The position numbers and the translations under genes are program-made. Below the pieces are notes generated by a model, which was given only the letters and a program-made list of their open reading frames with translations, was not told the origin of the DNA and did no database searches. A stretch of DNA of 64,000 bases, from contig JAFATB010000019.1 of the NCBI GenBank assembly GCA_019244185.1, positions 192,001-256,000 of the forward strand. The letters run 5' to 3'. The stretch is from Acidobacteriota bacterium. GTDB lineage: Bacteria > Acidobacteriota > Thermoanaerobaculia > Gp7-AA8. Below are positions 4,001 through 31,871 of the stretch, one piece after another (positions within the stretch are counted from its first letter, which is position 1; each line of letters begins with the position of its first letter).

Positions 4001-4569
4001 CGCCGCAGCTTCGATTCATTCAGACTATCTTACATAAGGAGTTCCTGCGTTACATAGGGGCGATTGGAAGGTGGCATGTGGAAGTCGGCTCACCGCCCAA
4101 TGCCTCACCCGTTCAACCGCGTCGGGAGCCGGCTGACCGCCTGACTCACTACGAGAACGAGGCGGCTTGGTGTTAGAGCACCAGCACCGCCTCGGTCACG
4201 GTCGTACCACACGGGCCGACCGACCTTCTCGACGCCTGCCGAACGCGTGACGAGCGCGTCTCGGCAGCTACTCAGTACCGTGAAGGAGCACGATATGACG
4301 AGCCTTGAAGGCACTCGCAAAGTACGCGATTCACAAGATTTCGCAAGTGGTGAGCGTGATCGCACCACACCAAATCATCTTCTGTGGCGTCCAGCGGAGG
4401 AAGCCGAACGGCCTCCGCGTAACAGCTCCCACGCGCAGCGTGGCGGGTCGGCCCACGGCCCGACGGGTACCGCCTCTGTGCTCACTGCGGGGCGCCGGTC
4501 GGACGACCGGAGCTGATCGCGATCCCCGCGAATGTCCGGACCTGCTTTCCGCTCGGTCCGAACGGAGGC

Positions 4570-5019
4570 GTGCTGATATGGCGACGCGTCCCTGGAACGA
4601 AAAAGTGGGTCCAGATCGAATACTTTCCACCCGATGACGAGCGCGATCAGTATGTTCCGGTCGATCCGCTGCTGAACTGCGAGGCCGCGGCGATCACGCT
4701 CGGACTGACCCTCAAGGCGCTGTACCCACGCGCCCCCTTCATGGCGTCCTCCGAAAAGCACGGAAGCCGGTGGTTCTTCCATCGAGATACCCTCCTCGCA
4801 ATCGACGCCGCGACCGAGCGCGCGATGCCCTCACGACGCGAGGTGCTCGCCGGGCGCGAAGCACGGCGCCGCCGCGGAGAGGGCCGTCGCGGGGGATCTC
4901 ATTCAGCCGCCTGCGACCGCCGCCATGGCGGCAGATGCCATCCGGCGCCGCAGCGAATTCCCTCATCGGAGGACGGCGCGGCGGTCACGCGTTCGATCTT
5001 GGACGATCTTGGGAAATGA
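4570..5019 (+). CDS. Excisionase-like helix-turn-helix protein
   Basis: PLLNCEAAAITLGLTLKALY...KHGSRWFFHRDTL matches the HTH_17/Xis pattern; GGAGG RBS before the GTG. Confidence 0.6.
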   Translation: MLIWRRVPGTKKWVQIEYFPPDDERDQYVPVDPLLNCEAAAITLGLTLKALYPRAPFMASSEKHGSRWFFHRDTLLAIDAATERAMPSRREVLAGREARRRRGEGRRGGSHSAACDRRHGGRCHPAPQRIPSSEDGAAVTRSILDDLGK

Positions 5020-5078
5020 GTCGCGCCGGCCTGCCGTCAGGCTCGGCCGGCCGTATTCACCCATTCTTGTTGCACGAA

Positions 5079-5107
5079 GGTAGGGAAGTGCTCGGATCGG
5101 TCACTCC
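5079..5107 (+). promoter_or_regulatory. Bipartite motif GGTAGGGAA-N14-CACTCC, copy 1 (upstream of recombinase 1)
   Basis: The same 15 fixed bases with identical spacing occur at four intergenic positions. Confidence 0.75.
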
Positions 5108-5172
5108 TAGAGAGGTAGCCTCGGGCGGTCGAATCCGCTATGTCTCCGCGCATGAAGGAAATGCGAGGACAT

Positions 5173-5766
5173 ATGCAAGAGGGTGCCTACCAGGTCCGTA
5201 ACTCGGAGTTTCATCTCACGCCCGAAGAGCTTTCGACGCTCATCGCAGGCGCGCAGTCGGAGAGAGATCGTCTCATGGTGTTGGTCTTGGCGTTTACAGG
5301 AATTCGCCGCGCGGAGCTGCGCAGCCTTCGGCCCGCCGATATCGACAGCGTCACGGAACGCCTCATCGTGCGTCGCGGCAAGGGCGGCAAGCAGCGCATC
5401 GTCTTTCTGCCAAAGCGCGTCGCCTTGGATGTATGCCGGTACGCAGGAGCGCACGCGGAGGCGTTCGTGTTCCCAGGCCGAAACGGCGGCCCCATGTCGC
5501 TGCGCAACATCAACTACATCCTCACGCGTGTCGGGAAACACGCGGGCGTGGCCACGCCAAATCCGCGATATGTCGGCATCGGCCCGCATCTCCTGCGCCA
5601 CTCGTTCGCCCGAAACTGGAAGCGGAGCGGCGGCTCCATCGAGTCGCTGCAAAAAATGCTCGGTCACGCGAGCGCGAAGACAACACTGGATTGCTACGGA
5701 ACGGAGGACTTGCGCGAAGTTGAAGCAAACTACCGCGAGCGTTGCTCGCGGCTCGTTTCGAGCTAG
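5173..5766 (+). CDS. Short tyrosine recombinase (catalytic domain only), recombinase 1
   Basis: TGIRRAEL (R), GKGGKQR (K), HLLRHSFA (HxxR), LGHAS..TT.DCY (H, Y); about 197 aa. Confidence 0.92.
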   Translation: MQEGAYQVRNSEFHLTPEELSTLIAGAQSERDRLMVLVLAFTGIRRAELRSLRPADIDSVTERLIVRRGKGGKQRIVFLPKRVALDVCRYAGAHAEAFVFPGRNGGPMSLRNINYILTRVGKHAGVATPNPRYVGIGPHLLRHSFARNWKRSGGSIESLQKMLGHASAKTTLDCYGTEDLREVEANYRERCSRLVSS

Positions 5767-5794
5767 TTTGCTCACTTTCGCCAGAGTAGGAAAA
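5767..5794 (+). repeat. 28-bp putative recombination site (left), TTTGCTCACTT-TCGCCA-GAGTAGGAAAA
   Basis: Starts 1 nt after the recombinase stop codon; inverted copy at 8342-8369 with an identical 6-bp core. Confidence 0.7.
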
Positions 5795-5798
5795 GCTC

Positions 5799-7208
5799 GT
5801 GCTGACCGTCGCCATCGTTCTGTTCTTCGTCACCACCCTTCTCATCGTTCAGGTGGCTATACGAAACCGCCCGCTCAAGTTGTACCGGCCGCTCGATGAC
5901 GATGACGTACCGTTTCCAGCTGCTGGACAAGCGAGCACCGTGTTTTCCCTCGCGGCGCTCTTTGGCTGCTACCCAGGCATCTTTCTCCTGATCGGGGGAA
6001 TTGGATTCGTGGGTGTTGCCGGCGGCAGCGCGGCCGCCCTACTACTCATCCGCGCGGCGCAGGCAGGTCACGAAGGCGGCTACGAGACGTTTCTCGAGGA
6101 TTTTCGCGACCGCTTTCGGGACACAGGGACGTTTTTCTTCGCGCTCTTCATCCTTCAGATTGGCTTTGCCATCTCTGAACTCGTCTTTCTACGGGTTGTA
6201 CTCCTACTCGCATTCGGCCTCAGTCCGAGCACGGCCAGCTACGCGGCGCTCGCCGTAGCAGTCGTTGGTTACTGCTACTGCCTCACGGGTGGCTATAACA
6301 CGGTCTTTCGCACAGACATTGTCCAACTTCTGACGGTCGCCGGGATGTGCCTGCTTCTCCTCGGCGCGCTCGCGACCTCACTCAGTCTTCCTGAATTCCT
6401 GACTGCCGCCGGAGCCAAGATGGTGCATCACGGTGGGTACTGGACGGCGGGATTCTTCCGATGGTCGTGGGTTGAACGCATCCTCGACTTCTCCTCCGGT
6501 TTCCTGCTTGGCTTTGCATTCCTACTCGTGAGCCCCGACACATGGAAACGGGTCTACATCGTTAGTCGCGTCCCGTCGCGTCGTGGCATCTCCCTCCTAT
6601 TCGTGGCGGCGGCATTCCCGTTCGTTGCAATCACGCCACTCGTTCTCGCGCTGCCAAATCTTCCACACGGCGTCGTCGACCCAACGGTGTTCCTCCAGCG
6701 CCTGGCCGGCAACCGAATCCTTCTTGGCGCAACGCTTATCGGTGTCTTCGCCAGCTTCCTCTCGTCATTCGACAGCGCGCTCATCGCAGCAACGCATGTG
6801 AGTCTCCTCTCGGCGCGTCGCGCGCGGCCTGCACTCGAAGAACTTGACCGGTTCCGATATCTAGCCGCGCTTCACTTCGTGATTGTGTCGCTGGTCTTTG
6901 TCATCGGGAGTCGCTTCGGAAATCCTGGGATTATGGCTACGATCCTCATGGGAACGTATCCCGTGCTCGGAGGCCTGCTGATCGGAACCCGCGCGGGCAC
7001 CCGCAATCTCCCGTCGGGAGCGTTCGGACTAGTCTTCCTTCTCGGCTGTGTCGCGTGGATTGTCTTCACGATGAGCGACGAAATGCGGTTCGAGGTGGGC
7101 CGGACGACAGACCTGAACTTCGTGCCGGCCGCTGGCTGTGTGCTCCTGGCATCCGCGGCGATGTCATGGATTCTCTCTTGGATTCCGCAGCAGCGGGAGG
7201 ACGAATGA
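5799..7208 (+). CDS. Sodium:solute symporter-like membrane transporter
   Basis: About 13 hydrophobic segments; YCLTGGYNTVFRTDIVQ and ASFLSSFDSAL motifs of the SSS family. Confidence 0.75.
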   Translation: MLTVAIVLFFVTTLLIVQVAIRNRPLKLYRPLDDDDVPFPAAGQASTVFSLAALFGCYPGIFLLIGGIGFVGVAGGSAAALLLIRAAQAGHEGGYETFLEDFRDRFRDTGTFFFALFILQIGFAISELVFLRVVLLLAFGLSPSTASYAALAVAVVGYCYCLTGGYNTVFRTDIVQLLTVAGMCLLLLGALATSLSLPEFLTAAGAKMVHHGGYWTAGFFRWSWVERILDFSSGFLLGFAFLLVSPDTWKRVYIVSRVPSRRGISLLFVAAAFPFVAITPLVLALPNLPHGVVDPTVFLQRLAGNRILLGATLIGVFASFLSSFDSALIAATHVSLLSARRARPALEELDRFRYLAALHFVIVSLVFVIGSRFGNPGIMATILMGTYPVLGGLLIGTRAGTRNLPSGAFGLVFLLGCVAWIVFTMSDEMRFEVGRTTDLNFVPAAGCVLLASAAMSWILSWIPQQREDE

Positions 7209-7795
7209 CTGACTTCGTTCTCGGCTACGCCGAGAAGCTTTGGGATCGCACGACGCCGGAGTATCGCGCCTTAGTCGTCGCGTTCATCCTCGCCCCCACA
7301 ATGGGCGCACTTCTCATCTGGTTGGCCGGGCCAGCGCCCTCCACGCATGCAACAATTTCCCCACCGCTGAACGTCATGCCACTTCGAGCACATGCAGCCG
7401 GACCGCGAGACCCCGCCACCACGGTCGTAATCGTGCAGCCGACGGAGGCGACCTTTACGATGCCATGGACAAGGCCACTAAGCGCCCTTCCCACGTCCCT
7501 CAGCGAGGAGCAGTGGCGAGGAAACACGGCGAAGATCTCGCAATCAAACCGTACAATTTCCATTGTCGTGCCGCTCGCTGGGGTGCAGGAACCCTTTGTC
7601 TTTCTGACGCAAGACGCGCCGCCGGATGCGGTGGAAATTTCAGGGCGAAAGTATGCGATGGCAGACTTGCGACTCCGTTCGCAGCAGGCAACCGACATTC
7701 TTCTTGGGGTGCTAATCTCCGCCGCGTTCGCTCTCGGCGTCGGCGTGTCGACTGCCAGCATTCCGATCCAGGCGCAGGAGCACGGAAGCGGTTAA
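7205..7795 (+). CDS. Hypothetical two-TM membrane protein
   Basis: ATGA overlap with the symporter; N- and C-terminal hydrophobic segments. Confidence 0.65.
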   Translation: MTDFVLGYAEKLWDRTTPEYRALVVAFILAPTMGALLIWLAGPAPSTHATISPPLNVMPLRAHAAGPRDPATTVVIVQPTEATFTMPWTRPLSALPTSLSEEQWRGNTAKISQSNRTISIVVPLAGVQEPFVFLTQDAPPDAVEISGRKYAMADLRLRSQQATDILLGVLISAAFALGVGVSTASIPIQAQEHGSG

Positions 7796-8038
7796 CACCG
7801 TGCAGAGGAATACGAGAATGGGATCGTTGAGCGGAACTCCGAGATATCGCGGCCCTGGATCGTTGTGTGCCCACGCCCGCCAGTGGAGTAAGAACGGATC
7901 CCATGGAAAGAAGATGAGCGCCACGGCGATGGCCGTACGTAGCACCGCGAGGATCTCTCGCCGTGAACGCACACAACTCACGAGAGCGATGATCGCGGCG
8001 ATCCCGACGCCGAGGTTGAGGACCGAATAGCGTGTCAT
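7712..8038 (-). CDS. Lycopene cyclase domain-like small membrane protein (CrtYd-like)
   Basis: FFPWD....WRAW.H....RYLGVPLND..LVFL pattern; ATGA-coupled to the upstream paralog. Confidence 0.6.
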   Translation of the reverse strand: MTRYSVLNLGVGIAAIIALVSCVRSRREILAVLRTAIAVALIFFPWDPFLLHWRAWAHNDPGPRYLGVPLNDPILVFLCTVLTASVLLRLDRNAGSRHADAESERGGD

Positions 8039-8343
8039 GTCCGCGCTCCTCGCCGAAGTGTGTTGCGCAGAACGAGTCTCGTGATGACGGTATGACCAAA
8101 GAGCGCTAACCATTCCTCCAGGGGCAACCGCGCGACACGAATCGGCAAGGTACCTTCAGCCGGGAAGTACCAGACACCCGTCTCGAGCGCGATCTGATCG
8201 ACGATGAACCAGAGCGCGATAAGCACAACCGACGTACTCCAGAGTCGTCCCGAGCGAAGGTCTTCCAACGTAACCGCGGGCCACGCGAACGACATCACGG
8301 CCGCAAGCAACGCGAGATCGAAGTAGAGGTAGTCGATGTTCAT
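8035..8343 (-). CDS. Lycopene cyclase domain-like small membrane protein (CrtYc-like)
   Basis: WFIVDQIALETGVWYFP...LPIRVARLPLEEWLAL is the lycopene cyclase domain pattern; ATG at 8343. Confidence 0.7.
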   Translation of the reverse strand: MNIDYLYFDLALLAAVMSFAWPAVTLEDLRSGRLWSTSVVLIALWFIVDQIALETGVWYFPAEGTLPIRVARLPLEEWLALFGHTVITRLVLRNTLRRGART

Positions 8344-8369
8344 TTCCCACTTTGGCGAAAGTGTGAAAT
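8342..8369 (-). repeat. 28-bp palindromic putative recombination site (right), ATTTCACACTT-TCGCCA-AAGTGGGAAAT on the minus strand
   Basis: Arms are 10/11 palindromic; 22/26 identity to 5768-5793 in inverted orientation. Confidence 0.7.
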
Positions 8370-8520
8370 GACGCTTACCTGCGCCCCCGATAGGAGGATT
8401 TCGACCGTTTCCGCAGATCGTCCGCCGCTGACTACTACAATGGTTTCCGCGACGGGAGATTTTGCACAGCACTCGGCTACGCGCCGCACTGATCTTTCTC
8501 AAACCTCTATCCCCACACCT

Positions 8521-8952
8521 ATGGCGATCAACATTCGCATGGTCGGAATGGTCACGGACGCCGTTCGCAGCCTCACGTTCACCCGCTCGGGTCTTCCGCG
8601 GTTCCGATTCGGCGTCCGCGTCGGAACCGTTCGCCCGAAGCAGTACGCCGTGACGCTCTATGGCCCGATGGCGCGGTTCGCAGACACCGCCCTTCGTACC
8701 GGGCAACGCATCCGCGTCGAAGGCGCGTACCTCCGTCGGTCGTCGCCGTACGAAGGTCTCGTGCGCGCAGACATGATTCGCCACGTCGGCCGCGCGGTGC
8801 CTCCGTACTTCGGAACCATGGTGCGGTTCGTTCCCGGAGCGCCGCCGACGCCGGCCGCCGCGCGGCCTCTCGCCGCCGATGCAGACCATCGCTCGGCGCA
8901 TGCGGTCAAGACCGCGCGCGTCATTGCTGACGCGATCGCGGCGGCGGTCTAA
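8521..8952 (+). CDS. Divergent single-stranded DNA-binding (OB-fold)-like protein
   Basis: IRMVGMVT...TRSGLPRFRFGV...YAVTLYGPMARF....LRTGQRIRVEG resembles SSB beta-strands. Confidence 0.55.
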   Translation: MAINIRMVGMVTDAVRSLTFTRSGLPRFRFGVRVGTVRPKQYAVTLYGPMARFADTALRTGQRIRVEGAYLRRSSPYEGLVRADMIRHVGRAVPPYFGTMVRFVPGAPPTPAAARPLAADADHRSAHAVKTARVIADAIAAAV

Positions 8953-9166
8953 CCACACGCGAGAAGACGGCTTCTCGGGAGGCGGTCGTAGCGTGCAAAT
9001 CTCCGTCGCCTCTTCATCGCCGTGAATGGGACGCGACTTCGACCGAGTCGCCTGACGATGCCGTCCGCATCAGCGATGCTGCTGCTCGCGAGTCGTGAGA
9101 TTGCACCGGCTGATTCGTCAGCCGCTCACGCGGTTCTTTCTCAAGCCATCCTTTCACTCCACTCCT

Positions 9167-9544
9167 ATGCGAAGCGTGAACAAAGTGATCCTCGTCGGCC
9201 ACCTTGCCGCCGATCCGGAGCAGTCCACCACGACCGCCGGACGGGTGCGCGTGACCTTCCCGGTCGCAACGCACCGGGATACCACCTCCGAGGGCGCGAA
9301 GAAGGACGTCACCGACTATCACCGGGTGACCTCCTGGGGGAAGCTCGCCGAAATCTGCGGCAAGTACCTCGCGAAAGGCCAAGGCGTCTATGTCGAGGGC
9401 ATGATCCTGAATCGCGCCTACGAGAAGGACGGCCAGCGCCGCTACGTCACCGAGATCCGCGCGGACGAAGTGAACATGCTGACGTGGAAGAAGCGGGATG
9501 GCGTCTCGAACGCCATCCTCAGCGATCTGCCTGACGGCGTGTAA
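9167..9544 (+). CDS. ssb: Single-stranded DNA-binding protein
   Basis: MRSVNKVILVGHLAADPE...WGKLAEICGKYLAKGQGVYVEG...YVTEIRA; lacks the canonical DDIPF tail. Confidence 0.95.
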   Translation: MRSVNKVILVGHLAADPEQSTTTAGRVRVTFPVATHRDTTSEGAKKDVTDYHRVTSWGKLAEICGKYLAKGQGVYVEGMILNRAYEKDGQRRYVTEIRADEVNMLTWKKRDGVSNAILSDLPDGV

Positions 9545-9745
9545 GTCCGTCGCGTCGGGGCGAGTGGCTCTCGTGCAATCTCACACTCGCTCCCACTTCG
9601 ACCGATTCGGCGATGGATTCCGGTCCGCATGTTTTCCTTCGACTGCGGACGACTTCCACGTCGCACCGGCTTCTCCTCGCAGCTGGTCTCTTTGAAAACC
9701 CACACGCACACGGCGAGCACCGGAACTCCTTAACCCTGTAATCCT

Positions 9746-9989
9746 ATGAACGCTCCTCGCTACACGCACGTGCTCCTCGACGCCGATTCGGGTGAAGCCG
9801 TGGGGGGCGATCCGCGATATCGATCAAACACCCGATGGCTCCGTCTTCGGCGTCATTCGGCGGTTCGATCGTGACGAGCCCGAGACCTACATGTGGCTCG
9901 ACGGCCTCGAGGTCATCCGACTCGCGGACGCCGCGGCGCATGTGCGGAAGCACGTCGCCTGGGCGCTCGCGCAACCCGCACCCGCATGA
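9746..9989 (+). pseudogene. Small hypothetical protein, frameshifted in the G6 run at 9802-9807 (possible sequencing error)
   Basis: MNAPRYTHVLLDADSGEAV joins GAIRDIDQTPDG...AQPAPA if one G is removed; shares the CCTATG leader of its neighbours. Confidence 0.5.
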
Positions 9990-10315
9990 CGGCGCTCGAA
10001 AAGCAGCACGCGTGGAGAAGCACGACCACCGTCTGCCCCCGGTGCGCGGCACAGCCGGGAAGTCACGCGTGGCCGAAGTCCTGGCTCCAGGAGCTGACGA
10101 TTGTCGACGGCATCCAAGCCGTCCACGGCGTGCTGTGTCGTCGGCCCTCATGCGGCTTCGCGGAGATCATCAGCCTGCGCGCCCACACCACCCCGGCCGC
10201 CGCACCCCGGCGACGCCGATGGCTCCGTGATGCCTTCGCCAAGCGCCCGGGCACGTTCGTGCTCGCGACGCTCGTGCAGGGCATCGCGATCGGTGTGCTC
10301 CTCGCGCTCGCGTAA
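9986..10315 (+). CDS. Small Cys-rich (CxxC...CxxxxC) protein with a C-terminal TM helix
   Basis: ATGA overlap; CPRC and CRRPSC motifs; hydrophobic C-terminus. Confidence 0.6.
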   Translation: MTALEKQHAWRSTTTVCPRCAAQPGSHAWPKSWLQELTIVDGIQAVHGVLCRRPSCGFAEIISLRAHTTPAAAPRRRRWLRDAFAKRPGTFVLATLVQGIAIGVLLALA

Positions 10316-10418
10316 CTCCTCTGGTGCGGTTCCGATGTGGAAGTCGCTCCGCACCTTGGGCCTCTGTCCCCACGCTGTAAGAACCAGAGCCGCGCCGCAG
10401 CCGCAGCCCGGCTCCCGT

Positions 10419-10751
10419 TCAGGTGCGGTCGATCACGGTCGCGTCCGGAGCGTTCTCCTTCACGGACTTGATGCCGCTGTCGCGCGCCGTGGTGGAGGAG
10501 TACATCTCGCTCGTGCCGATCACCTGCCCGTTCGTCGCGGTAAGGGTGAAGTACGGGCTCCCGTTCGTCGCGGTCTTGCGGACGTAGCGGGCATCGTCCT
10601 TCGCATTCTTGCGGACGGACTCGATGCCGTTCTCCGCGCCGCTCTTCGTCTCGTACGTCTCGCTCGTGAGGATGGTCTCGTAGTTCCCTGCGCGCAGGTT
10701 GAACCGGTACTTGCCGCTGCGGCCCTTCTCGATCACGAACGATCCTGCCAT
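10419..10751 (-). CDS. YegP/DUF1508 family protein
   Basis: Tandem repeats FNLRAGNYETILTSETY...GIESVRKN and FTLTATNGQVIGTSEMY...GIKSVKEN; GGAGGAG RBS. Confidence 0.93.
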   Translation of the reverse strand: MAGSFVIEKGRSGKYRFNLRAGNYETILTSETYETKSGAENGIESVRKNAKDDARYVRKTATNGSPYFTLTATNGQVIGTSEMYSSTTARDSGIKSVKENAPDATVIDRT

Positions 10752-10892
10752 GTCCGGTCTCCTCCTGGTCCGTCACAGGAGCAGTGTTCGCGCACGCTTT
10801 CGACATGCGCGTGCCCTGTCCCTCCGAAAGACACGAAGCGTGCGGAATGGTGGCGTTCAAACCGATCCTGACTGGCGTCGACGGCCGCACGC

Positions 10893-12125
10893 TCACCGCA
10901 CGACGATCTGCACACTCGCCGTTGCCGGCCCGCACGGCGTGTCGACGGTGAGGGTCACCGTGTCCGTCCCGGCATGCGTCGCCGTGTAGGTGTGCCGCGT
11001 CTCGGGTGGCGAATGCACCGGCCCGCCGAGAGCGTTGCCGAGCGACGATGCGACGCTTCCCACTTCGCCGTGCCGCTCCTGCGTCGTGTAGGAGACGTAT
11101 GTGCTTTCGCCGACCGCAAGCGACGCCTTGCCCGCCGTGAACGATTCGATGAGCGGCTTCGCGCAGGTCCACACCGTCTCGGGTCCGCCGATCCCGGCGG
11201 AGCCGCACGCACTGTCGCCGTAGAAGGTGATGTTTGCTTCGCCGGCGCGCGCCGGCGTGTACACGACCTCGATCTCGCCGTTCGCCGAGCGCGCGCCGGC
11301 CGCGGGCGTGACCGTCCCATTATCCGTCTCCACCCACCATCGCGTGATCGAGGAACCTGCGAGGAAGAGCCAGCGTTGCTGCTGGCCGACTGCAACGCGG
11401 CCGTTCGCCTGCCCGATGTCGACGGCCGGCGCCTCGCCGATGCAGCGGGCGATCGGCAGCGTCATCGAGCTCGCGCCGCAGCGGCCGGTCACCGTGAGGA
11501 CCGGCTCGGCCGGAAGGGAAGGGAAGTAGACGCGCGCGCTGCCGCCGAACGCGCTCGACCCGGCGAGCGCGTCCCGGAAGGGCTGCGCGCCCTCGATCGA
11601 CCAGAACGAGCCGTGCTCATAGCTGAACTGGAGCGTCGTAAAGGTGAAGGGCGCGAGCGCCCCGTGTTCCGCCCCGAAGCTATTAATGATCGGCGGTGGC
11701 TCGATCGGCACTGCTGCCGTCGTCTCAGGCCCGATGTCGCAGGTGGTCGCGATCGCCGAAGCGTCATGTTCGCGCGCGCAGTGACCACCATCGCCCCCGA
11801 GGAGGGGAGGTCGCACGCCACGTCGCGGATGTGGACGCGGGCGTTCGGCTCCGAGGCTTGCCACGAGACACGGACCGGCTCCCCGTCGCAGGCGGAGCCT
11901 TCGAACGTCAGCCGCACCGTGGGCTTCGAGGTGCAGGCTGAGCCGCCGAAGCGCACGGCGCGGCGTCGCACGAGCGGCCGTGTGAGCGGGTAGCAGGCGG
12001 TGGTGTCGGCCGGCGCCGCCACCTGCTGGATCTCCTCGGGCGGCGTCTGAGCGTGGGAGGCCACCGGGGCGAAGAGAAGTGTCAGCAGGCCGATGGCTCG
12101 TGCGCGGCGGGCGATGCTTCGCCAT
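10893..12125 (-). pseudogene. Secreted Ig-like repeat protein with an RRRAV motif; frameshift near 11757 (possible sequencing error)
   Basis: Signal peptide RRARAIGLLTLLFAPVASHA and RRRAVRF lie in one frame; AIATTCDIGP...VQIVVR lies in another. One extra base near 11757 joins them. Confidence 0.6.
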
Positions 12126-12156
12126 ACTGAGACTGCTCCCGCCTTCTTCCTTCCGG

Positions 12157-12184
12157 TCTCTCGAAAATGCAGAAAAGCGTCAAA
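12157..12184 (+). repeat. Putative recombinase-2 site (left), TCTCTCGAAAA-TGCAGA-AAAGCGTCAAA, overlapping the start codon
   Basis: TGCAGAAAAGCGT (12168-12180) is the exact reverse complement of 12818-12830; the left arm is degenerate. Confidence 0.55.
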
Positions 12185-12808
12185 CTCACCGGCCTCGTGT
12201 CGGCAGAACGAAACGTCCCGACCACGCGCCCATCTGGCGTGCGCTACGTATCGAAAGAGGAGGTCGAACAGTTCTTCGCCGCGATCCCGAGGGAGAACCT
12301 TCGAGATCGGCTGCTGTTCGACCTCATCTACCGTCACGGGCTGCGACGTCGCGAAGTCGCGCTCATCAGCGTGGACGACGTCTCGCTCCGCCACAGGTCC
12401 ATCTGGATCAGCCGAGTGAAGCAAGGGATCCCAGGCATGTACCGGCTACATCCGAAGACGATCGCGCTGCTGCGCGACTACCTGCCGACGCGGCACGTCG
12501 GCAACGGCCGGTTTCTCTTTCAGAGCACGAGGCGACCGGGTGCCGCGATCTCACCCTCGATGATCTACTACCTGTTCCGGCGCTATGCGACGGCGGCCAA
12601 CCTGCCGGAGGGCCGGCGGAACGTGCACGTCTTCCGGCACAGCATCGCCGTGCATTTCATGAACGAAGGCATCGACTCGGCAGACGTGAAGGACTGGCTC
12701 GGCCATCGGAGCATCTCCTCCACGATGATCTACGCCCAAGTAACGAATAAGCGGCGAGACGCGACCTACCAGCGCGTGCGCTCGTCGAAGGAGATCGCGA
12801 GGACATGA
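12167..12808 (+). CDS. Short FimB/FimE-like tyrosine recombinase, recombinase 2
   Basis: RDRLLFDLIYRHGLRRRE, ISRVKQG, HVFRHSIA, WLGHRSISSTMIY. Confidence 0.92.
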   Translation: MQKSVKLTGLVSAERNVPTTRPSGVRYVSKEEVEQFFAAIPRENLRDRLLFDLIYRHGLRRREVALISVDDVSLRHRSIWISRVKQGIPGMYRLHPKTIALLRDYLPTRHVGNGRFLFQSTRRPGAAISPSMIYYLFRRYATAANLPEGRRNVHVFRHSIAVHFMNEGIDSADVKDWLGHRSISSTMIYAQVTNKRRDATYQRVRSSKEIART

Positions 12809-12813
12809 CGGCC

Positions 12814-12841
12814 ATTCACGCTTTTCTGCAAAAGCGTCAAT
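12814..12841 (+). repeat. 28-bp palindromic putative recombinase-2 site (right), ATTCACGCTTT-TCTGCA-AAAGCGTCAAT
   Basis: 11-6-11 structure with arms 10/11 palindromic; begins 6 nt after the recombinase stop. Confidence 0.7.
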
Positions 12842-13273
12842 GCTGCCCTTCGGCAGACAGCTCATTTCGCGTTCATTTCAGACGATGGAACGCCGCTTAC
12901 GTTACCAAGCCGACCCAGTCCGTTGGTCGTCCCAGAACAACCAACACGAGGGAACTCGATGTCCATCTTTAAAGTGGACAGCATGCGTTCGGTCTAGCGT
13001 GATCTGCTAACGCCGCGTGCGGCTTCGGGGAATCCTGAGTTGCCGGCGACTTGTCACCCGTCCGCGTCCGTCCGGTCACGACTATCCCCGTTTCGCCAAG
13101 CGGCGCGGGGGCTACCCTCGCACGCTCGCGATTGCAGCCTTGGTGCGCGGCATCGTGCTCGGGCTCATCGGCGTTAGGAATACGGCAGAATGCGAGGACA
13201 CGGCGAGTCATCAGAACTCGCCGACGCGGCTATCCGCTGGGGAACCTTGAATCTTGCCGTTTTTCAGTCGAGG

Positions 13274-13302
13274 GGTAGGGAATTTTCTCTCCAGGTCACT
13301 CC
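13274..13302 (+). promoter_or_regulatory. GGTAGGGAA-N14-CACTCC motif, copy 2 (upstream of the ABC/sulfotransferase operon)
   Basis: Exact motif and spacing. Confidence 0.75.
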
Positions 13303-13393
13303 CCTTAGTGGCTCGAGCTACCACAAATGATGATATCCCTCACTCGACAGGCAGAGAGCTGGCGAGGAGGGTGCTGCCGTGAAGGAGTACCTG

Positions 13394-14392
13394 ATGAATC
13401 ATCCTCGGCGTCCAAGTGCGTTGTTCACCATAATGTTACTGCTCCTCGCTAGCTGCGCGAAAGATGAGGGACGCACAACTTCAGCGGCCCCCGCAGCGCG
13501 CGCATCTCTTCGGGTTGCTGTGAATCCGGTGCCGCAGTCCGCGCTTGTGATCATCGCCGCAGAGCGCGGCTACTTTGCACGCGAAAACCTCGACGTCACC
13601 GTCAGCCGTTTCCCTACGGGCAAGCTCGCCTTTGACGCGGTGCTCGGAGGGGCGGCCGATGTTGCGACGGTCGCCGACGTCCCAATCATGTACGCGCTCA
13701 TGTCCGGGCAGGCGCCAGCAGTACTCGCGACAATCGAACGATCTGGGAAAAGCGTCAAACTGCTCGCCCGCAAGGACGCCGCAATCGCGTCTCCTGCGGA
13801 CCTTCGCGGCAAGAAGGTCGGTACGTTCAAGGGTAGCAGCGGGGAATTCTTTCTCGACGCGCTGTTGGCCAAGCACCACGTACCATCCGCCGAAGTGGCG
13901 ATCGTACATTTACAGCCACCGGACCTAGTGACGGCGATCACCAGAAAGGACGTCGCGGCTATTAGTATCTTCGAACCCCATATCCACAACGCGGCTACAG
14001 TTCTCGGATCGAACGCGTTGGTGGTCGAGGACCCGTCGGTCTACACCGAAATCTTCAATGTCGCGACGACAGAAAAGGCCCTCGCCGCTCGGCAAGACGC
14101 CTTTGTCTCGTTCCTACGCGCTCTGCAGCGAGCCGCGGACGACATCAGGCGGGATCCGAATGGCGCGCAGGCGAGCGTCGCTCGATTCACCCAGCTTGAC
14201 CCAAATGTGCTGCGTGAAATTTGGCCGATGTTTCAGTTCACCATCACGACCGATCGTGTGCTCCCCGATCTACTACGACGCGAAGCGGATTTCGCCGTGC
14301 GTTCTGGGTCGCTGCCAGCGCCGAGCTCGGAACCACAGTTCGAACGTGTGCTCAAACCTGAAGTTCTTAGTAAGGCAACCGCTACGCCATGA
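13394..14392 (+). CDS. ABC transporter substrate-binding lipoprotein, NrtA/SsuA/TauA family (alternative start 13379)
   Basis: Lipobox LLASC; AAERGYFARENLDV; ADLRGKKVG; AAGGAG RBS. Confidence 0.9.
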   Translation: MNHPRRPSALFTIMLLLLASCAKDEGRTTSAAPAARASLRVAVNPVPQSALVIIAAERGYFARENLDVTVSRFPTGKLAFDAVLGGAADVATVADVPIMYALMSGQAPAVLATIERSGKSVKLLARKDAAIASPADLRGKKVGTFKGSSGEFFLDALLAKHHVPSAEVAIVHLQPPDLVTAITRKDVAAISIFEPHIHNAATVLGSNALVVEDPSVYTEIFNVATTEKALAARQDAFVSFLRALQRAADDIRRDPNGAQASVARFTQLDPNVLREIWPMFQFTITTDRVLPDLLRREADFAVRSGSLPAPSSEPQFERVLKPEVLSKATATP

Positions 14393-23514: not shown

Positions 23515-25710
23515 TTAGAGGACTGCGGTGAGTTCGTCGATCGTTCCGCGCTCTTTCGCGGTCGTCTGTTCCTGTCCTTCGAGAAATCGAATCTCCTCCC
23601 GGAGAACCTCCGCTTCCTGGCGCTCGTTGAGCAGGCGGTCGTAGGCTGAGGAGCGCTCGGCGACCACCAACGCCATCCGGCTGTTGAAATCAGCCCGATA
23701 CCCACTAGCCGTAAGGCTGACCGCCTCGGTCATATCGTCGCTCAACTTCTGGACTGCCAGTTGAGACAGTTGGCGAAACTCCTCGAAATGTTTGCGCTCA
23801 TTGCGAATTTTCTGCTGGCGGTCAGGAGCACCATCGAAAAACTCCTTGGCCGCCTGCGCTCCCCCCAGCAGCGCGGCCCCCAGAACAGCACCGGGAGGTC
23901 CTCCGACCAGGAAGCCTCCGATGCCTCCGAGGAGTGCACCGATAATTCCGCCCACAGCCGCGCGCGGCTTCCGATCGCCTTTCACCTTGATGTACTCGTA
24001 CGCGCGGTCCTCCGCGTCACGTGTGATCGCTTCCATGCTAATTGTTGGAAGATGAACTGAGTACTTCGACTCGAACGTCTGTCCGAGCTCTCTCATCTTT
24101 CGCTCGTACGCCTCTCGGAGAGCCGCCACTCGTTGTTTAAGCAACCCATCGGATTCGTTGCTGAAATCGACGAGAAGTTTCTTCATCTCATCGATGGAAG
24201 CTGCGTCTGAGAGAGCTTTGTCGTATCGCTTCGCAAGCGCAGAAAACGCAACCTGCGTTTCGCCGAGGCCGGTGAAGGCGTCGAGGTCCTGCGTTCCAAA
24301 TGAGGCAAGCGCGTCCTGGTAGCGCTTTAAGATCTCCTTGAGCTGTTCAATCTCCTCCTCGAAATCTTCAGGGGGACGCGTCACCTGGCTCCTGCGCAAA
24401 TGGATGCGCTCACCGTAGATGCGGCGATGCTCGTGATAAGCATCTGCGATGTGGGTCAAGATCGAGCCTACGAAGCTCGCAAATGCCTTACTGGAAAACT
24501 CGCGCAGCAGAGCTTCCGCCGCATCGAAGTTGGAGTCGCGTGCCAGCGCTTGCCGGATCGTGGTGGCGGTGTCTGGCGATCGCCCTTTCTCCCGCTGCTC
24601 CGCTTCCTCCTGAATGTAGTAGGCCAGCAACCGCTTGATCTCTTCGTCGCGGCGCAGCGCCTCAACCTTCTCGCCCGCGTCGATGCGGTTCGCTATGATC
24701 TTGAGGAGGCTGTCGATGGCCAGAATACGCCCCCGCCTGATTTCAGACTCGGGGTAGAGCGAGTGCGTCTCGTGGACTAGCGTCGTGCGTTGAGCGGCTG
24801 TTAGCGACCAGGCGTGCGTCAGAAAGAGGAACGCGTTCTGCTTGGGCTTCTGCGGCACCTTATGCTTGAAGAAATGCTCCAGCGACCTGCTGGCGATGTT
24901 GTCGGCCCGGTGTAGCAGGACCACCGCGTCGGCATCGACGATGTACTTGATCGTCGCCTCGTCTAGTCCGCCACGCGCGTTGACCCCCGGCGTGTCGACG
25001 ATGTGGAGATCGGAGTACCCAAAGCGAAGTGGATATCCTACCGTCACCTGAACGGGGATTCGCTGCAAATCGCGGTACTCGTCGAGGTAGTGCCGGACGA
25101 GCGCGACGAACTTCGCCTTGGGAAGGCGATGTGGGCTTTCCAGGAGAGCCTCGCCATTCTCGTCGCGTCTCTCCAACAGTTCGGCCACGATCTCGTCGGT
25201 GATCGCCTCAGGCTGTTCGGTGAGCAGGTATTCGTTCAGCTGGAAGATCGGGAGATCACGATACTCCTCGCGCACCGCTGCGATGGCCTCTAGGCGGTCG
25301 CGCATCGGGCCGAGGTCTTCCGCCCTTCCGCTTTCAAATTCCAGCCGGGCTTCGGGCATCGTCCCGTACCGCACGCTGAGAAACACGGGGGGGCGTCCCG
25401 GCTGATACGCGGTGTCAACGATCTCAATGACGCCGCTCGTGCACTGAAGAATGTCGGAGGGAAGGACTCTCTGCCGAAGTAATGCGTTGAGGAACGTCGA
25501 CTTACCGGCCTTGGCCTCCCCAACGACTACCAGCAGGTACCTTCCTTCCGCGAGCTTTCTGATGTCGTTCGCGAGAAACTTTAGGTCGTTTTCCGACAGC
25601 GGATCGCTGACGTTAGTATTCTTCACCAGTTCCGATCGCGCCCGCATGTATCGGTGAAAGATGTCTAACGTCGCGGCGCGAATCTGTTCCTGTTGCTGCT
25701 GAGCGAACAC
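23515..25710 (-). CDS. Bacterial dynamin-like GTPase
   Basis: G1 VVGEAKAGKSTFLNALL, G2 CT, G3 IVDTPG, coiled coils and a Gly-zipper membrane paddle. Confidence 0.88.
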   Translation of the reverse strand: MFAQQQQEQIRAATLDIFHRYMRARSELVKNTNVSDPLSENDLKFLANDIRKLAEGRYLLVVVGEAKAGKSTFLNALLRQRVLPSDILQCTSGVIEIVDTAYQPGRPPVFLSVRYGTMPEARLEFESGRAEDLGPMRDRLEAIAAVREEYRDLPIFQLNEYLLTEQPEAITDEIVAELLERRDENGEALLESPHRLPKAKFVALVRHYLDEYRDLQRIPVQVTVGYPLRFGYSDLHIVDTPGVNARGGLDEATIKYIVDADAVVLLHRADNIASRSLEHFFKHKVPQKPKQNAFLFLTHAWSLTAAQRTTLVHETHSLYPESEIRRGRILAIDSLLKIIANRIDAGEKVEALRRDEEIKRLLAYYIQEEAEQREKGRSPDTATTIRQALARDSNFDAAEALLREFSSKAFASFVGSILTHIADAYHEHRRIYGERIHLRRSQVTRPPEDFEEEIEQLKEILKRYQDALASFGTQDLDAFTGLGETQVAFSALAKRYDKALSDAASIDEMKKLLVDFSNESDGLLKQRVAALREAYERKMRELGQTFESKYSVHLPTISMEAITRDAEDRAYEYIKVKGDRKPRAAVGGIIGALLGGIGGFLVGGPPGAVLGAALLGGAQAAKEFFDGAPDRQQKIRNERKHFEEFRQLSQLAVQKLSDDMTEAVSLTASGYRADFNSRMALVVAERSSAYDRLLNERQEAEVLREEIRFLEGQEQTTAKERGTIDELTAVL

Positions 25711-25744
25711 TCGTCACCTCTCCGCAAGGATGTTGTGTATGAAG

Positions 25745-26007: not shown

Positions 26008-29000
26008 CTAGGCGCTTGCTATCACGGCGAACGGCAGTTGATACGTTTCCATAAGGTGATTCTCCGTTACGCTTAGCAGTTCCAGCTGGCTCTGGGATGC
26101 CCTGGAGGTGGAGAGGCCCGGCTGAACAACAAAGACCTTCACGCGCAGAGCGCGCTCGCGACTGATCTCGCGGATGCGGATCAACTCCTCGGACGTGCCA
26201 CGCTCGATTCGTGAACCGCCCTGCTCTTGGGCTGCCGCCTCGCGCCGGAGCAGATGCGTCAGCATGTCCGTCTGCCGCTCTGTTGAGGCCATCCACGAAA
26301 TGCACTTCTGCGCCTGGCCGCACACCTCGTACAAATCGCCGACGCGGGCTCCCGGCGCGTCACCCTTCGCATACTTGCAGTGGTACAGCTCCAGGATGAC
26401 CTCCGTCGGAATGTCGCCCTCGCCGACCAGCCGTATCGCCACAACATCCGCGAGTTCGCCCTTCCCATCATCGTCGAAGATGACCGCATACGCAGGATCT
26501 TTTAGCAATTCCTGAATTACGCGTGCCTGAACGGAATCCGCGTCCTTCGTGAACCCCTGTGACTCCTTCCGGATATTCGTCCCGGCCCAATCCCATGTTC
26601 GGATCTTCTGTGGGTCATACGGCGGCTGATGCACCTTTAGCTCAACGTGCTCGTTTCCTTCGAGCGAGGAGCCGTCAACGAACCAGATCAGCGGAGGCTC
26701 TTCGTAAAAGAACTCCGTGAGGTCGCAAGGTTCGGCCCGATCTCCGCGGCGGATAGTCACCGTCGTGTCTCCGACGATGCGAAACGCGTAGTTGGGCGCG
26801 TCGTCGTCCTCAAACAGCTCCAGCTCAACGACTACCGAAACCGTCTCGGACGGGATGCTTATTTGGAGAGCGCCATCGCTCGTTGGCTCAACTAAGTCGA
26901 TACTCAACCCGCTAAGAGGAACATCAACTCCATCAATCGTGATCGTCCATTGGGCTTCATTCGCTTTATAGATCTCCTCCGGCCAGTCAGCGTAAATCGG
27001 CATGACTGTCGGCCGCGTCGATACGTCTGAGCGTTCAATGTTCCCTTGAGAACCTCATCTGGATCGATTGTCGTATCCAGCAGTTTTTGGCCAACTTCGT
27101 CGCACCACGTAATGAATCTCGCAACATTCTCCCGTTGATGCGACCACACGCGGCCGCGACGCGACGCGCCGATCGTCGCGCGATGTCCGTTCTCAAACCC
27201 GCCGCCGGCGAGTACGCTCTTTCGGCCCTTTCGCTTGATGACATCGGTGAGTGCCGATGCCACATCTGCACCCATGCGGCCGGTATAGCGAACATTTCGG
27301 CCGAGCTGCTCCGACAGCCCGACATTCTGCAGCTTCAGACGTGTAATGCCGGAAAAGGTGCGAAATACGTCCTGCCCTTTGATGAGCGTCACATCTTCAC
27401 CGGCGACGGCGCGCGCCAAGGATCTGTATTCGCCGGCATTCGCCGAGCAGTTGATGAACAGGAGCTTCTGCGTCGCCGACCAATGCAAGACGTACAGCTC
27501 CCATTGCCAGTCGTAGATCGTTTCGACATCGCTCCACGAAAGCGCGAGTCGCTTCGCTGTCACGACTACCAAAACAGTCTTATCCGCGTTCAAGGCAGGG
27601 TACACTTGCTCGCAGTTTGCGATGCCGGGTATCCCTTCCCGAAAGTTTTCCGGTGCCCAGTTCTCACAAGCGGTCTTGAACACGACGGCGCTGCACGCTG
27701 GCCTTAGTGTCTTCAGGGGGATTTCTTCCGGAAAGTCCGTAAAGCCGGCGAGGAATGTCTGGAGATTGATCTGCTCGCCGATGAGCGTGTCGCTCAGTTC
27801 CGGCAACAGTACATTCCAATCCGGGTCACGGTTGTAGAGCTTTCGCAGCTCTGCGCGGACGTTCACATCGGCGACGTTCGCGATGAATGTAGCGTCGCCA
27901 AGATCCTGTCGTGCACGCGTGAACCGCCCTGCGAGTTGCAGCGTTACCGCGAGCGTCTTGCGGATGTCGTGGAATGCGGCGATTTTTAGCTCGGGAAGAT
28001 CGAAGCCTTCGCCGAGCATGTCAACACACACCACAATCTTCGATTTGCCCGAAAGGATCGCATCTCGCGCCGCTTCGCGCGCTTTAGTCGATTTGACACC
28101 TGTGTGGAGCTGCACAGGATTGAATTCTCGATACCGCTTGTAGATGTCAAACACCCGCTGCGCATCACGCAGGGTTTCAACGCGTGCCATGAGAATATGG
28201 CCCTTGGTGGCGTCTGCGCGTAGCTGTTCGATCGCTGCGTTCGCGATGGCCTGATCCACGCGTGAGGGATTGAACTCGTACACTGACCGAAATTGGATCG
28301 GTCGGAAGTACCCGTCTTCTTGAGCTTTCTTGAGCGAATATTTGTAGATGATCTTGCCATCGAGCGTTCGGCCGTCTTCACGGAAAGGCGTCGCTGTGAA
28401 CTGCAACACTCGTTTCGCCGAGAAACGCTCCATGAACGCACGCCACGTGGGTGACTCCGCGTGATGCGCCTCGTCGATGAACAAATATGGACAATGATGG
28501 GCCATCCGATCCTGAACGTCGTCGTCGCATTGGCTCGCGATTGCGCTCGTCATGACGATGACGTGGCATTGCTCAAAGAATGCGTCGACCTCGGCGACGC
28601 TCGTCGGTACGTGTGTGAGCATGCCGACAACAGGGCAGCGCGCCGATGCGGCGAGAACGGCGCTGCCTGGCATCTTCAGCACGCCAAGCGACAGAAACTT
28701 CTCGGCGAGCTGCGTTCGCAGCGCGTCGGTCGGCACCACCACAAGCAACCGCTCACAAGCTGCCGACGTCAGGACCGACAGCATGACTTCGGTCTTTCCC
28801 GTGCCCGTTGGCATCACGATCGTTCCCACGTCTGAGGACAACGACCAGTGCGAATGGACTGCGTGGACTGCACCGATCTGCGGGCGCCGGAGTCCGATGA
28901 TGCTCCGGCTCGCATCTTCTTCCACGTAGCGAAACGCGTGCGCCCATGATTCGCGCGTGTTGCCTATCTCTCTTCGCACGTCGGGATTCGTAATTCTCTT

Positions 29001-29282
29001 CGGGTGCTTGATCCATCTGCCGCGCCGTAGATCCGCGCCGACGGCAGCCGTCTTGGGAAGCAGAACGGCGTATGTATCGGCCGACTCAACAAACTTCGGA
29101 TCGGTCGCGACGATGACTTCTGTGCCGTCTCCGTCCGGTTTGAACAGGAAGCCCTTCCGCTTGTTCCGGGTGAGAGGGATAAGTGCTCCCTCCGCCGCAA
29201 CATCGCGATCAACTACCTGACGAATCGGGCTGCCGAGGACCCACTCGTCGTTAGCGAGGACGTCGGGGAAATCTACTCGCAT
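26008..29282 (-). CDS. SF2 (DEAH, type III Res-like) helicase with a C-terminal PD-(D/E)xK-like nuclease, about 1090 aa, split by one frameshift near 27024
   Basis: MPTGTGKT, IDEAHH, FTATPFR, MLGEGFDLP, QLAGRF. C-terminal part has DDDGKGELADVV...YHCKY...LYEVCGQAQK. One added base joins NAQT to VSTRPTVMPIY. Confidence 0.85.
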
Positions 29283-29786
29283 GTTGTTAGACCGCGCTAA
29301 GCGCTACGTGAAGAATTTCAACAAATCCCACGCGTTGGCGCAATGTGCGACGCGCGGCGGTGAGCGGGGCGGCCTTCACTCGGAACTCAAGCACAGGACG
29401 TTAGACACGGTCCGGCCGGATTCGTGGCGTCCTCGAGGATGCAGGGCTCGGCTATCGGACTTGCGCCGACGGCGCAGGACTGGTAGCAATCTTCTGTTCC
29501 TTCACCGACCGCAGTTCCCGAATCTGCTTCCTCAACCAACCGTCTCATGTCGCGTGCTTCGTCGCTTCCTGAAGCGTCAATCCGCAGCTTGACGGTTCGG
29601 TGGTTGATGGTAAGGATGAGGTCACCAGTTCGATCCTGGTCGTGGGCTCGCAGCGCATCCAGACGCCGGAACTCCAGCGCGCTGCCCGAAGACTGCATCG
29701 AGCGGCCGACCACATTCCGAACGTCAGAATCGTGGTCACCTTCGGTCGAGGAAGGGAGCACTCCTACCTCCTTCCTCCATTCTTCT

Positions 29787-30821
29787 ATGGGTTCGCTCCT
29801 CTCCGGTGCGTGGCCGACACCACCGCCCGCTCCTCGTCTCGACGCGTTCCAACGCCTCGCGGTCGGTGCGCCCGCATCCGCTGAACTCCCGCCTCCGGCG
29901 ACGCTCGCCGAGCTTGATCAAGTCTTCCGGCGGTTCTTCGAGGCCGCCACCGCCGTGGCGGGCCTGAGCCGCTGCACCGCACACAACTTTCAGGTGGCGT
30001 ACCGCTCGTTCCGCGCCTACCTCGTGACGCAGGTGCCGGACGACGGGGCTCCGCTCGGCGCGACCCTGCACGACATCGACGGCTGGATCGCCGTGCTCCG
30101 GACGCGTCCGCGGCCTGCCGCGGCGAACAGCATCCACCGCTACTGGCGGAGTGTCCGGGGCTTCTTCGGTTACGTTGAGCACCTGACCGGGCTCCCGTCG
30201 CCGTTCGCGGGGCTTCGGCCGCCGCGCCTGCCGGACCGAATCCCGAAGGCCCGTACACCGGCCGAGTGCGCCCGCATCCTCGCCGCCGTCGCGAACTACC
30301 CTGGCTGGTCGGCGTTCGAACGCGGCCGGAACCGCGCGCTCATCGGCATGGCGCTCTACGCTGGACTTCGCCGCGGTGACCTCGTGCGGCTCCAGTACGC
30401 AAACGTCGACGTCCAGGAGCGCACGATTCGCGTCGAAGGCGGCAAAGGTCGCGGCGGTGGAAAGGATCGGGTCGTGATGATGGCGCCGGACCTCCTCGAC
30501 ATCGTGCTCGCTTACCTCCGCGAGCGGCATCGGCGCCGGCTGGTCCTGCCCGAGTTCTTCGCGAGTACCGCAGGTCAGCGACCGATCGCTGACGTGACCA
30601 TTAACCGGCTCGTCCGACGCCTCCGAATCGCCTCCGGTGTGCCGTTCACGCTCCATAGCCTGCGGCACTCCTTTGTGACGCAGCTCCTACGTGCAGGCGT
30701 CCCGCTGCACACGGTGAGCGCGCTCGCGGGTCACACGCAGATCACGACAACCGCCGGATACCTCCGAGTGTGGGACGAGGACAAGGTTGCCGCGGTTCAG
30801 CGGCTGTCCTTCGACGGCTGA
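29787..30821 (+). CDS. XerC/D-like tyrosine recombinase (recombinase 3)
   Basis: YAGLRRGD, GKGRGGGKDR, HSLRHSF, LAGHTQITTTAGY; N-terminal core-binding region present. Confidence 0.92.
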   Translation: MGSLLSGAWPTPPPAPRLDAFQRLAVGAPASAELPPPATLAELDQVFRRFFEAATAVAGLSRCTAHNFQVAYRSFRAYLVTQVPDDGAPLGATLHDIDGWIAVLRTRPRPAAANSIHRYWRSVRGFFGYVEHLTGLPSPFAGLRPPRLPDRIPKARTPAECARILAAVANYPGWSAFERGRNRALIGMALYAGLRRGDLVRLQYANVDVQERTIRVEGGKGRGGGKDRVVMMAPDLLDIVLAYLRERHRRRLVLPEFFASTAGQRPIADVTINRLVRRLRIASGVPFTLHSLRHSFVTQLLRAGVPLHTVSALAGHTQITTTAGYLRVWDEDKVAAVQRLSFDG

Positions 30822-31855: not shown

Positions 31856-31871
31856 GTTCTCGGATTCATGG

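Follow-up and report, generated by a model that had tools for sequence, protein, structure and literature searches.

Two tyrosine recombinases without a core-binding domain and their private inverted site pairs: probable DNA inversion switches on a mobile island of an uncultured acidobacterium

The recombinases and their sites

The 64,000-nucleotide stretch of DNA analyzed here (the window; positions 192,001 to 256,000 of contig JAFATB010000019.1, C14:192001-256000 in our numbering) comes from the 5.3-Mb, 26-contig genome of an uncultured soil acidobacterium of the class Thermoanaerobaculia, and it carries two short tyrosine recombinase genes, R1 and R2, each with a pair of inverted sites. Both lie on the plus strand. 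R1 (5140..5766) encodes 208 residues and R2 (12167..12808) 213, and each consists of a catalytic domain only: the sole Pfam match is PF00589, above the cut-off for both proteins (E 3e-27 over residues 26-186 in R1; E 9e-28 over residues 27-195 in R2). In alignments with the structures of XerA, an XerC-like protein and XerD, the two proteins pair with the catalytic halves only, from about residue 100-137 of the Xer chains, and thus lack the core-binding domain. R1 and R2 share 28% identity over 194 residues. A first-pass annotation of this DNA had described two dissimilar short recombinases that lack the usual core-binding domain, and these comparisons bear this out. The R, K, HxxR, H, and Y columns, presumably the catalytic residues, are invariant in alignments of 28 R1-family and 25 R2-family members. 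The protein collection holds 294 R1 homologues, most of them about 197 residues long, and the true start of R1 is therefore probably a few codons downstream of 5140.

Neither protein reaches the cut-off of a named recombinase model. Against the FimB/E-type models PRK09870 and PRK09871 (cut-offs 221 and 222 bits), R1 scores 36.6 and 35.3 bits; R2 scores 69.0 bits with PRK09870, a full-length but sub-threshold match, and 45.8 bits with PRK09871. The integron-integrase models behave in the same way (TIGR02249, 62.8 bits for R1 and 53 for R2 against 265; PRK15417, 52.9 and 31.4 bits against 435), and both proteins fall far below the cut-offs of the XerC, XerD, and XerA models.

The proximal R1 site, IR-L (5768..5793; TTGCTCACTT-TCGCCA-GAGTAGGAAA), begins 2 nt past the TAG stop codon of R1, and its distal partner, IR-R (8343..8368; TTTCCCACTT-TGGCGA-AAGTGTGAAA), is inverted relative to it. 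The two are 26 nt long, 85% complementary, built around a common TCGCCA centre and separated by 2.55 kb. The right R2 site (12814..12841; ATTCACGCTTT-TCTGCA-AAAGCGTCAAT) begins 6 nt past the TGA stop codon. The left R2 site (12157..12184) has a degenerate outer arm, TCTCTCGAAAA, the centre TGCAGA and the inner arm AAAGCGTCAAA; it contains TGCAGAAAAGCGTCAA at 12168-12183, which matches the post-stop site exactly, in inverted form, over 16 nt. The expectation that each recombinase gene would be followed within 1-6 nt by a site having an inverted partner with the same core thus holds for both. The further expectation that the post-stop sites are palindromes applies to R2, the arms of which match at 10/11 positions; IR-L is only weakly palindromic (6/10, counted by eye) and its distal partner is the better palindrome (arms 10/11). 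In addition, and not noted before, the left R2 site overlaps the R2 ATG (12167-12169) and codons 2-6.

As bare sequence matches within the window the repeats are only mildly unusual. With up to 3 mismatches allowed, site 1 has 3 matches (1.0 expected; 6 of 100 shuffles reached 3) and site 2 likewise has 3 (0.7 expected; 3 of 100 shuffles). Their significance rests instead on position, on conservation in homologues and on the contig evidence discussed below. No further copy of either site was found in the 5.3-Mb genome at up to 5 mismatches.

Inversion of the R1 cassette

Between the R1 sites lies a 2.6-kb segment with two sets of genes that converge. On the R1 side, memA (5799..7208, plus strand) begins 5 nt past IR-L and encodes a 469-residue multi-pass membrane protein resembling sodium:solute symporters. 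It has no Pfam or NCBIfam match, PF00474 included, and its similarity to SSF clusters (Atlas feature score 0.97, predicted-structure TM 0.77) is a lead only. The next gene, orfA2 (7205..7795, plus strand; start read by eye), overlaps the memA stop codon in an ATGA and encodes about 196 residues with hydrophobic N- and C-terminal stretches, features that make it likely to be membrane-anchored; it has a homologue in locus L002 (E 6e-14) and no Pfam match. Two genes for small membrane proteins run in from the other end on the minus strand. The start codon of lycB1 (8035..8343; 102 residues) shares one base with IR-R, and lycB2 (7712..8113; 133 residues) follows. Both show sub-threshold matches to lycopene-cyclase (CarR) domain models: lycB1 to TIGR03462 (E 5.5e-9, 36.4 bits against a cut-off of 39.4) and PF18916 (E 1.7e-5, 25.8 bits against 27), and lycB2, more weakly, to TIGR03462 (E 2e-4, 21.6 bits against 39.4). 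We regard the relation of these two proteins to lycopene cyclases as a resemblance only. The genome holds one gene of the phytoene/squalene-synthase family and no other match to the cyclase domain.

Both orientations of this segment exist, and the R1 system is a working invertase. In the three metagenome runs that contain the region in full (X1, X2, and X3), the contigs cover 4500-5783, 5773-8363, and 8353 onward, i.e., the breaks fall precisely on the repeats, and the 2591-nt cassette interior forms a separate contig in each. The 49-nt unitigs of X1 contain all four junctions, the two of the reference orientation at depths 13.4 and 23.3 and the two of the inverted orientation at depths 9.2 and 11.1. 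The nine loose letters at the inverted junctions are exact reverse complements of 8334-8342 and 5794-5802, and the same loose ends are present in X2 and X3. Each inverted junction in X1 also carries 2 other letters within the repeat, which fits an exchange inside the centre. A fourth run, X4, yielded low-depth fragments only.

Comparison among genomes points the same way. In the six genomes that carry the cassette, the symporter-like gene adjoins the recombinase in the window, L002, L003, and L006, and the lycopene-cyclase genes adjoin it in L004 and L008; the recombinase-adjoining gene of L004 is 77% identical to lycB1. The four-gene cassette is constant in six of the nine R1-family loci with enough downstream sequence (memA is kept in L002, L003, L006, and L008, and lycB2 in L002-L004, L006, and L008). 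The other three (L005, L007, and L009) are inversion elements as well, with different content. Open reading frames beyond IR-R are not homologous between the R1-family loci.

The family to which R1 belongs was compared over 25 genome loci with at least 42% identity. It is sporadic: six of 401 sampled genomes of the class, this one included, carry it, and none of 24 other sampled genomes of the same genus does. The ten closest loci (L001-L009 and L021; 53-84% identity) all have a related site directly past or across the stop codon, with stop-overlapping sites in L002-L004. An inverted partner is present in all seven of these loci that have enough flanking sequence (eight of eight when the window is counted), at spacings of 2587 (L002), 2623 (L003), 2594 (L006), 2626 (L008), 3652 (L007), 155 (L005), and 138 nt (L009). 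The centres are locus-specific (TTTCGCCA, TTTAGCCA, TTTCGTCA, TTTCTCCA, TTGATAG, TTTTGTTG, and CTGACAAA). In an ungapped scan, the distant relatives L010-L025 (42-51% identity, other phyla) gave no convincing post-stop partner. We infer that R1 is the catalyst of the inversion, because it adjoins the sites and because sites and recombinase co-vary.

These data suggest how such a switch might operate. Transcription of R1 would read through the stop codon and IR-L into the adjoining end of the 2.6-kb segment, and in the simplest reading R1 and the proximal gene set would form one transcription unit. At each end of the segment the gene set begins within 0-6 nt of the inner edge of the repeat, which leaves it no space for a promoter. 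An exchange of strands within the TCGCCA centre would flip the segment and thereby swap the expressed set, memA and orfA2 for lycB1 and lycB2, so that the two sets would be expressed alternately from a promoter on the R1 side.

The content of some relatives is of interest in its own right. In L007, from another Thermoanaerobaculia genome, the 3.65-kb invertible segment of an R1-family invertase (6598-10277) holds convergent genes for an AAA/TPR protein (796 residues) and a serine hydroxymethyltransferase (422 residues); the latter is a housekeeping-type gene and unexpected in a switch. Invertible elements of the size of fimS occur in L005 (6576-10812), where the 155-nt element lies directly upstream of an MmeI-like restriction-modification gene (1346 residues), and next to the R1 relative of L009 (138 nt; 6571-6758). 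One uncultured genome carries several copies of distant R1 relatives (L025:219-4498; L012:2384-3586), the 3′ ends of which are directly repeated 1-4 kb apart; this arrangement suggests multi-recombinase arrays.

Sites that bracket the R2 gene

The R2 sites enclose exactly the R2 reading frame: the left centre overlaps codons 1-2, and the right site lies past the stop codon. Relatives of R2 occur in 27 of the 401 class genomes, often in several copies. We examined 35 loci, namely 30 of 45 genome matches and five metagenome loci; the counts over 34 loci omit one from an unpublished genome (G175), on which no claim rests. In 31 of the 34 loci, which span 43-90% protein identity, the start site matches the post-stop site of the same locus at no fewer than 13 of 17 positions. 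The median is 15/17 within a locus, compared with 12 for pairs taken across loci. The two-site layout is confined to relatives with at least 46% identity, and in 60 more-distant relatives the match between start and post-stop regions was no better than in controls. As to whether homologues keep a post-stop palindrome, a check proposed with the first-pass annotation, they do.

The arms are common across the family, and the two sites are always inverted. The 6-bp centre, which doubles as codon 2, differs even among proteins that are 79-90% identical (TGCAGA, TGCTGA, TGAAGA, TGTGGA, TGATGA, TGGGTA, and others), yet it is matched within each locus. Matched centres fit a need for strand exchange, and not the needs of an operator.

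In this scenario, R2 would flip its own gene between the start-codon site and the post-stop site. The R2 protein would be unchanged by the inversion, because the right flank supplies a start codon: TTG (ATG in some subfamilies) from the right outer arm would replace the ATG. After the flip, the conserved divergent left neighbour would be directly preceded by the R2 stop codon and its site, a repetition of the R1 layout, and the sequence immediately upstream of that neighbour would be exchanged. We consider self-inversion of R2, judged from the sequence comparisons, about an even proposition; any such event would have to be rare or conditional.

Paralogues of R2 are often found on the same contig, separated by 4-7 kb (L118-L122, e.g., G123:C346 and G059:C62; about 15 kb in L122), in either relative orientation. 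Each of the tandem paralogues has its own pair of start and post-stop sites, with centres that differ between them, and they therefore look like separate units. A further observation concerns an exact 15-nt copy, GAAAAGCGTCAAACT, of the start-site arm and the next codons at 13745-13759, about 900 nt downstream and inside an NMT1-type binding-protein gene. It specifies K-S-V-K-L as R2 does, rare AAA codons included, and the preceding 6 nt differ from the R2 centre. This arm copy could be a secondary half-site or a relic.

The flanks of R2

The two sides of R2 differ in conservation. On the left lies a divergent gene (10893..12140, minus strand) homologous to exported proteins of about 417-433 residues, and this neighbour is syntenic with R2 in six same-genus loci. 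Among 30 loci there are 30 homologous left-flank pairs, all with the neighbour on the strand opposite to R2, and no homologous right-flank pairs. The downstream genes, the variability of which had been proposed as a test, are hence variable for R2 and constant for R1 (six of nine loci). In 18 of the 30 loci, an open reading frame of at least 229 codons starts no more than 142 nt from the R2 start. Many of these neighbours have signal-peptide-like or lipoprotein-like N-termini, as judged by eye, and five of ten tested gave weak reprolysin-like or PKD-like matches.

In the window the neighbour is frameshifted near 11756. It is a single open reading frame of 417-433 codons in four relatives, and tblastn with the intact homologues (L082 and L084-L086) splits into two frames here. 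The frameshift does not appear to be an error private to the assembly, because no insertions or deletions were reported in X1-X3.

On the right, homology with same-genus relatives stops at 12841-12849, the outer edge of the R2 palindrome, and the right flanks of five of these relatives have no match anywhere in this genome. The X3 assembly is interrupted exactly at the post-stop palindrome (contigs 8353-12842 and 12813 onward), and the contigs of X1 and X2 run through; the break at 12813-12842 implies that another DNA context in X3 shares that 30-mer. In the window and in L116, a homologue of the coupling protein is encoded on the right side of R2, and L111 and L113 have an integrase homologue 6-7 kb beyond R2. 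Since coupling-protein and integrase genes lie farther right, the variable DNA is internal to the island that carries R2. A third site bounding this variable DNA was found neither in the window or the genome nor in 12 loci of up to 20 kb that hold 16 R2 copies. R2 may nevertheless play a part in cargo turnover, given the end of homology at the palindrome edge and the break in X3, and the R2 sites may also mark a boundary of cargo exchange in the island.

Two other identities for R2 were considered and rejected. An element-end integrase beside a conserved target does not agree with right flanks of relatives that are without a match here, nor with island genes farther to the right. A small insertion sequence, with a 675-bp unit, does not agree with a left flank that is syntenic over several kb in six species.

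Weighing the explanations

Collectively, we think it probable that the R1 and R2 units are site-specific DNA inversion switches, run by recombinases of the FimB/FimE functional type that lack a core-binding domain and act on private inverted 11-6-11 site pairs. A more specific proposal is tentative and somewhat doubtful: that the R2 frame is an invertible element, with its crossover in codons 1-2 and a start codon on both sides, which is re-aimed between the exported-protein gene and the hypervariable island, and that together with the R1 family it forms a private-site mini-invertase toolkit of Thermoanaerobaculia.

A number of observations weigh against this interpretation, most of them on the R2 side. 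For R1, contig depth does not equal the share of cells in each orientation, and the junctions establish existence and not frequency. Moreover, X1-X3 are possibly the source samples of the assembly and in that case not independent of it. A promoter and terminator scan of the R1 unit, which requires a driving promoter, returned one promoter-like site, no more than in shuffles, and is uninformative. For R2, no flipped gene was seen in the 35 loci examined, and tblastx of right against left flanks gave no match that would reveal one among relatives. X1 and X2 each have a single contig that runs from 8353 to 13500 unbroken across both R2 sites, no R2 inversion junction is present among the contigs and loose ends listed, and a loose end in X1 at 12177 is not the junction expected for R2 inversion. 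The scan found no promoter-like site in the R2 unit. The right flank is unrelated even in close relatives, so that no conserved promoter is possible there for a flipped gene, and a reversible R2 switch becomes harder to explain. Finally, the presumed target gene is the neighbour that is frameshifted here.

The absence of a flipped R2 also enters into an alternative that we consider unlikely, in which R2 is a multimer-resolution or maintenance recombinase of the island with a lox/dif-like post-stop site, and the start site is an operator that represses R2 and the divergent gene. Single-recombinase Xer modules with a gene-adjoining site exist, e.g., XerS/difSL; the island has relaxase-like, coupling-protein-like, and integrase genes, and the post-stop site is a good 11-6-11 palindrome. 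An operator, however, needs the arms only, and the freely varying 6-bp centre is identical within each R2 locus. In several subfamilies, moreover, the outer arm of the start site is itself site-like (e.g., GTTCACG versus GTTGACG). The matched centres bear in a similar way on the idea that the R2 site pair is a functionless relic or by-product, such as the ends of a once-mobile recombinase unit. That R2 was never seen flipped and that its target gene is frameshifted here would agree with a relic, but a layout present in 31 of 34 loci, with centres matched within and different between loci, needs continued selection, and we hold this explanation to be very improbable.

The first-pass annotation had left the choice between a fimS-like switch and integron-like gene capture. 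The first is what the R1 junctions and the two orientations show; the second would make the post-stop palindromes attI-like capture sites and the downstream genes acquired cargo, and it seems improbable to us. What speaks for capture is the right side of R2: left flanks but no right flanks are homologous among the 30 loci (30 pairs and none), homology ends at the palindrome edge, five relatives have right flanks without a match in this genome, the X3 contigs break at 12813-12842, and the arm recurs as a 15-nt copy at 13745-13759. What is missing from the window, the genome, and the 12 loci is a second full site bounding the variable DNA; the sole partner is inverted and local. Tandem R2 paralogues each have their own site pair, the supposed cargo of R1 is one conserved four-gene cassette that inverts, and with the integron-integrase model the two proteins reach 63 and 53 bits, far from the cut-off of 265.

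Relation to known systems

The closest functional parallels of the inversion switches proposed here are the FimB/FimE invertases, which R1 and R2 resemble in their length of about 200 residues, in having a catalytic domain only and in the location of the gene beside short inverted repeats. R1 and R2 differ in falling below the invertase cut-offs and in their host, an uncultured soil acidobacterium. The 155-nt element of L005 and the 138-nt element of L009 are comparable to fimS in size. The distal repeat of the ipuA/ipuS system of E. coli lies inside the 3′ end of ipuA (PMC6083910), and this location of a repeat in the 3′ end of an invertase gene recalls the sites that overlap the stop codon of the R1 homologues in L002-L004. 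In contrast to fimS, hyxS, and ipuS, what R1 inverts is not a promoter but 2.6 kb of complete genes, and the R2 segment is the recombinase gene itself.

A second comparison is with the G segment of phage Mu (Gin) and with Salmonella Hin. These are inverted by serine recombinases with an enhancer and Fis, and the alternatives are variants of one protein. The hin gene lies inside its own invertible segment, and the Hin repeats do not coincide with the ends of reading frames. The logic proposed for R1 is like that of the G segment, in which a promoter outside the segment stays in place and the promoterless genes at the two ends alternate, and Hin sets a precedent for the arrangement proposed for R2, a recombinase gene that lies within the segment it inverts. 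The differences are that R1 is a tyrosine enzyme and that its alternatives are unrelated membrane proteins.

With integrons, the two units share a tyrosine recombinase beside its own site and, for R2, variable DNA beyond that site. They differ in that there are no repeated cassette-bounding sites, the partner is inverted and local, and the site lies past the 3′ end of the gene. The similarity to Xer/dif is in the sites, with arms of about 11 bp around a 6-bp centre, and in the protein, for which the catalytic domains of XerA, the XerC-like protein, and XerD are the closest solved structures. However, R1 and R2 are without a core-binding domain, each recombinase has two inverted sites and not one per replicon, and the outcome for R1 is inversion.

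A search of the full-text literature, with subscription journals and supplements outside its coverage, turned up general work on invertons but no recombinase gene bracketed by its own repeats and no invertons in Thermoanaerobaculia. Self-inversion of R2 would be the more novel part of the finding.

Most of the known programmed inversions are those of host-associated bacteria, and it is mostly promoters or specificity genes that they flip. With R1, the unit flipped in an uncultured soil acidobacterium is an entire cassette of four membrane-protein genes, present in both states in natural samples; phase variation is thereby extended to a phylum that has been little studied and to a choice between transporter-like and cyclase-like genes. 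R2, if it truly inverts, would be about the smallest self-contained genetic toggle, one gene and two 28-bp sites, and would explain variation of exported-protein genes on a mobile island. Both families offer short recombinases with distinct private sites that can be tested as orthogonal inversion tools.

The island around R1 and R2

The third-position GC content (GC3) is lower across the first ~36 kb of the window than in the remainder, and the region 1-36700 resembles an island. Within it lie two relaxase-like genes (Replic_Relax; 1472-2452 and 33889-36684), a coupling-protein-like gene (31872-33527), a convergent pair of full-size integrase genes (29487-30821, plus strand, and 30833-31918, minus strand), an intact SSB gene (9095-9544), and, both on the minus strand, genes for a dynamin-like GTPase (23515-25713) and a ResIII/SNF2 helicase (26904-29303). 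Because relaxase-like, coupling-protein-like, integrase, and SSB genes surround them, R1 and R2 are placed in a mobile island, which may be two elements in tandem. The gene order in same-genus relatives is relaxase, variable DNA, SSB, DUF1508 gene, exported-protein gene, R2, and variable DNA.

Judged against L111 and L113, R1 and its cassette look like an insertion into the island backbone. That the cargo is compositionally distinct, another point of the first-pass annotation, holds to a modest degree: the cassette has a GC3 of 0.65-0.69, compared with 0.74-0.81 in its neighbours. Just outside IR-R, a degenerate SSB-like open reading frame (8368-8952; E 0.005) precedes the intact SSB gene, and a stretch matching the SSB region is inverted in L111.

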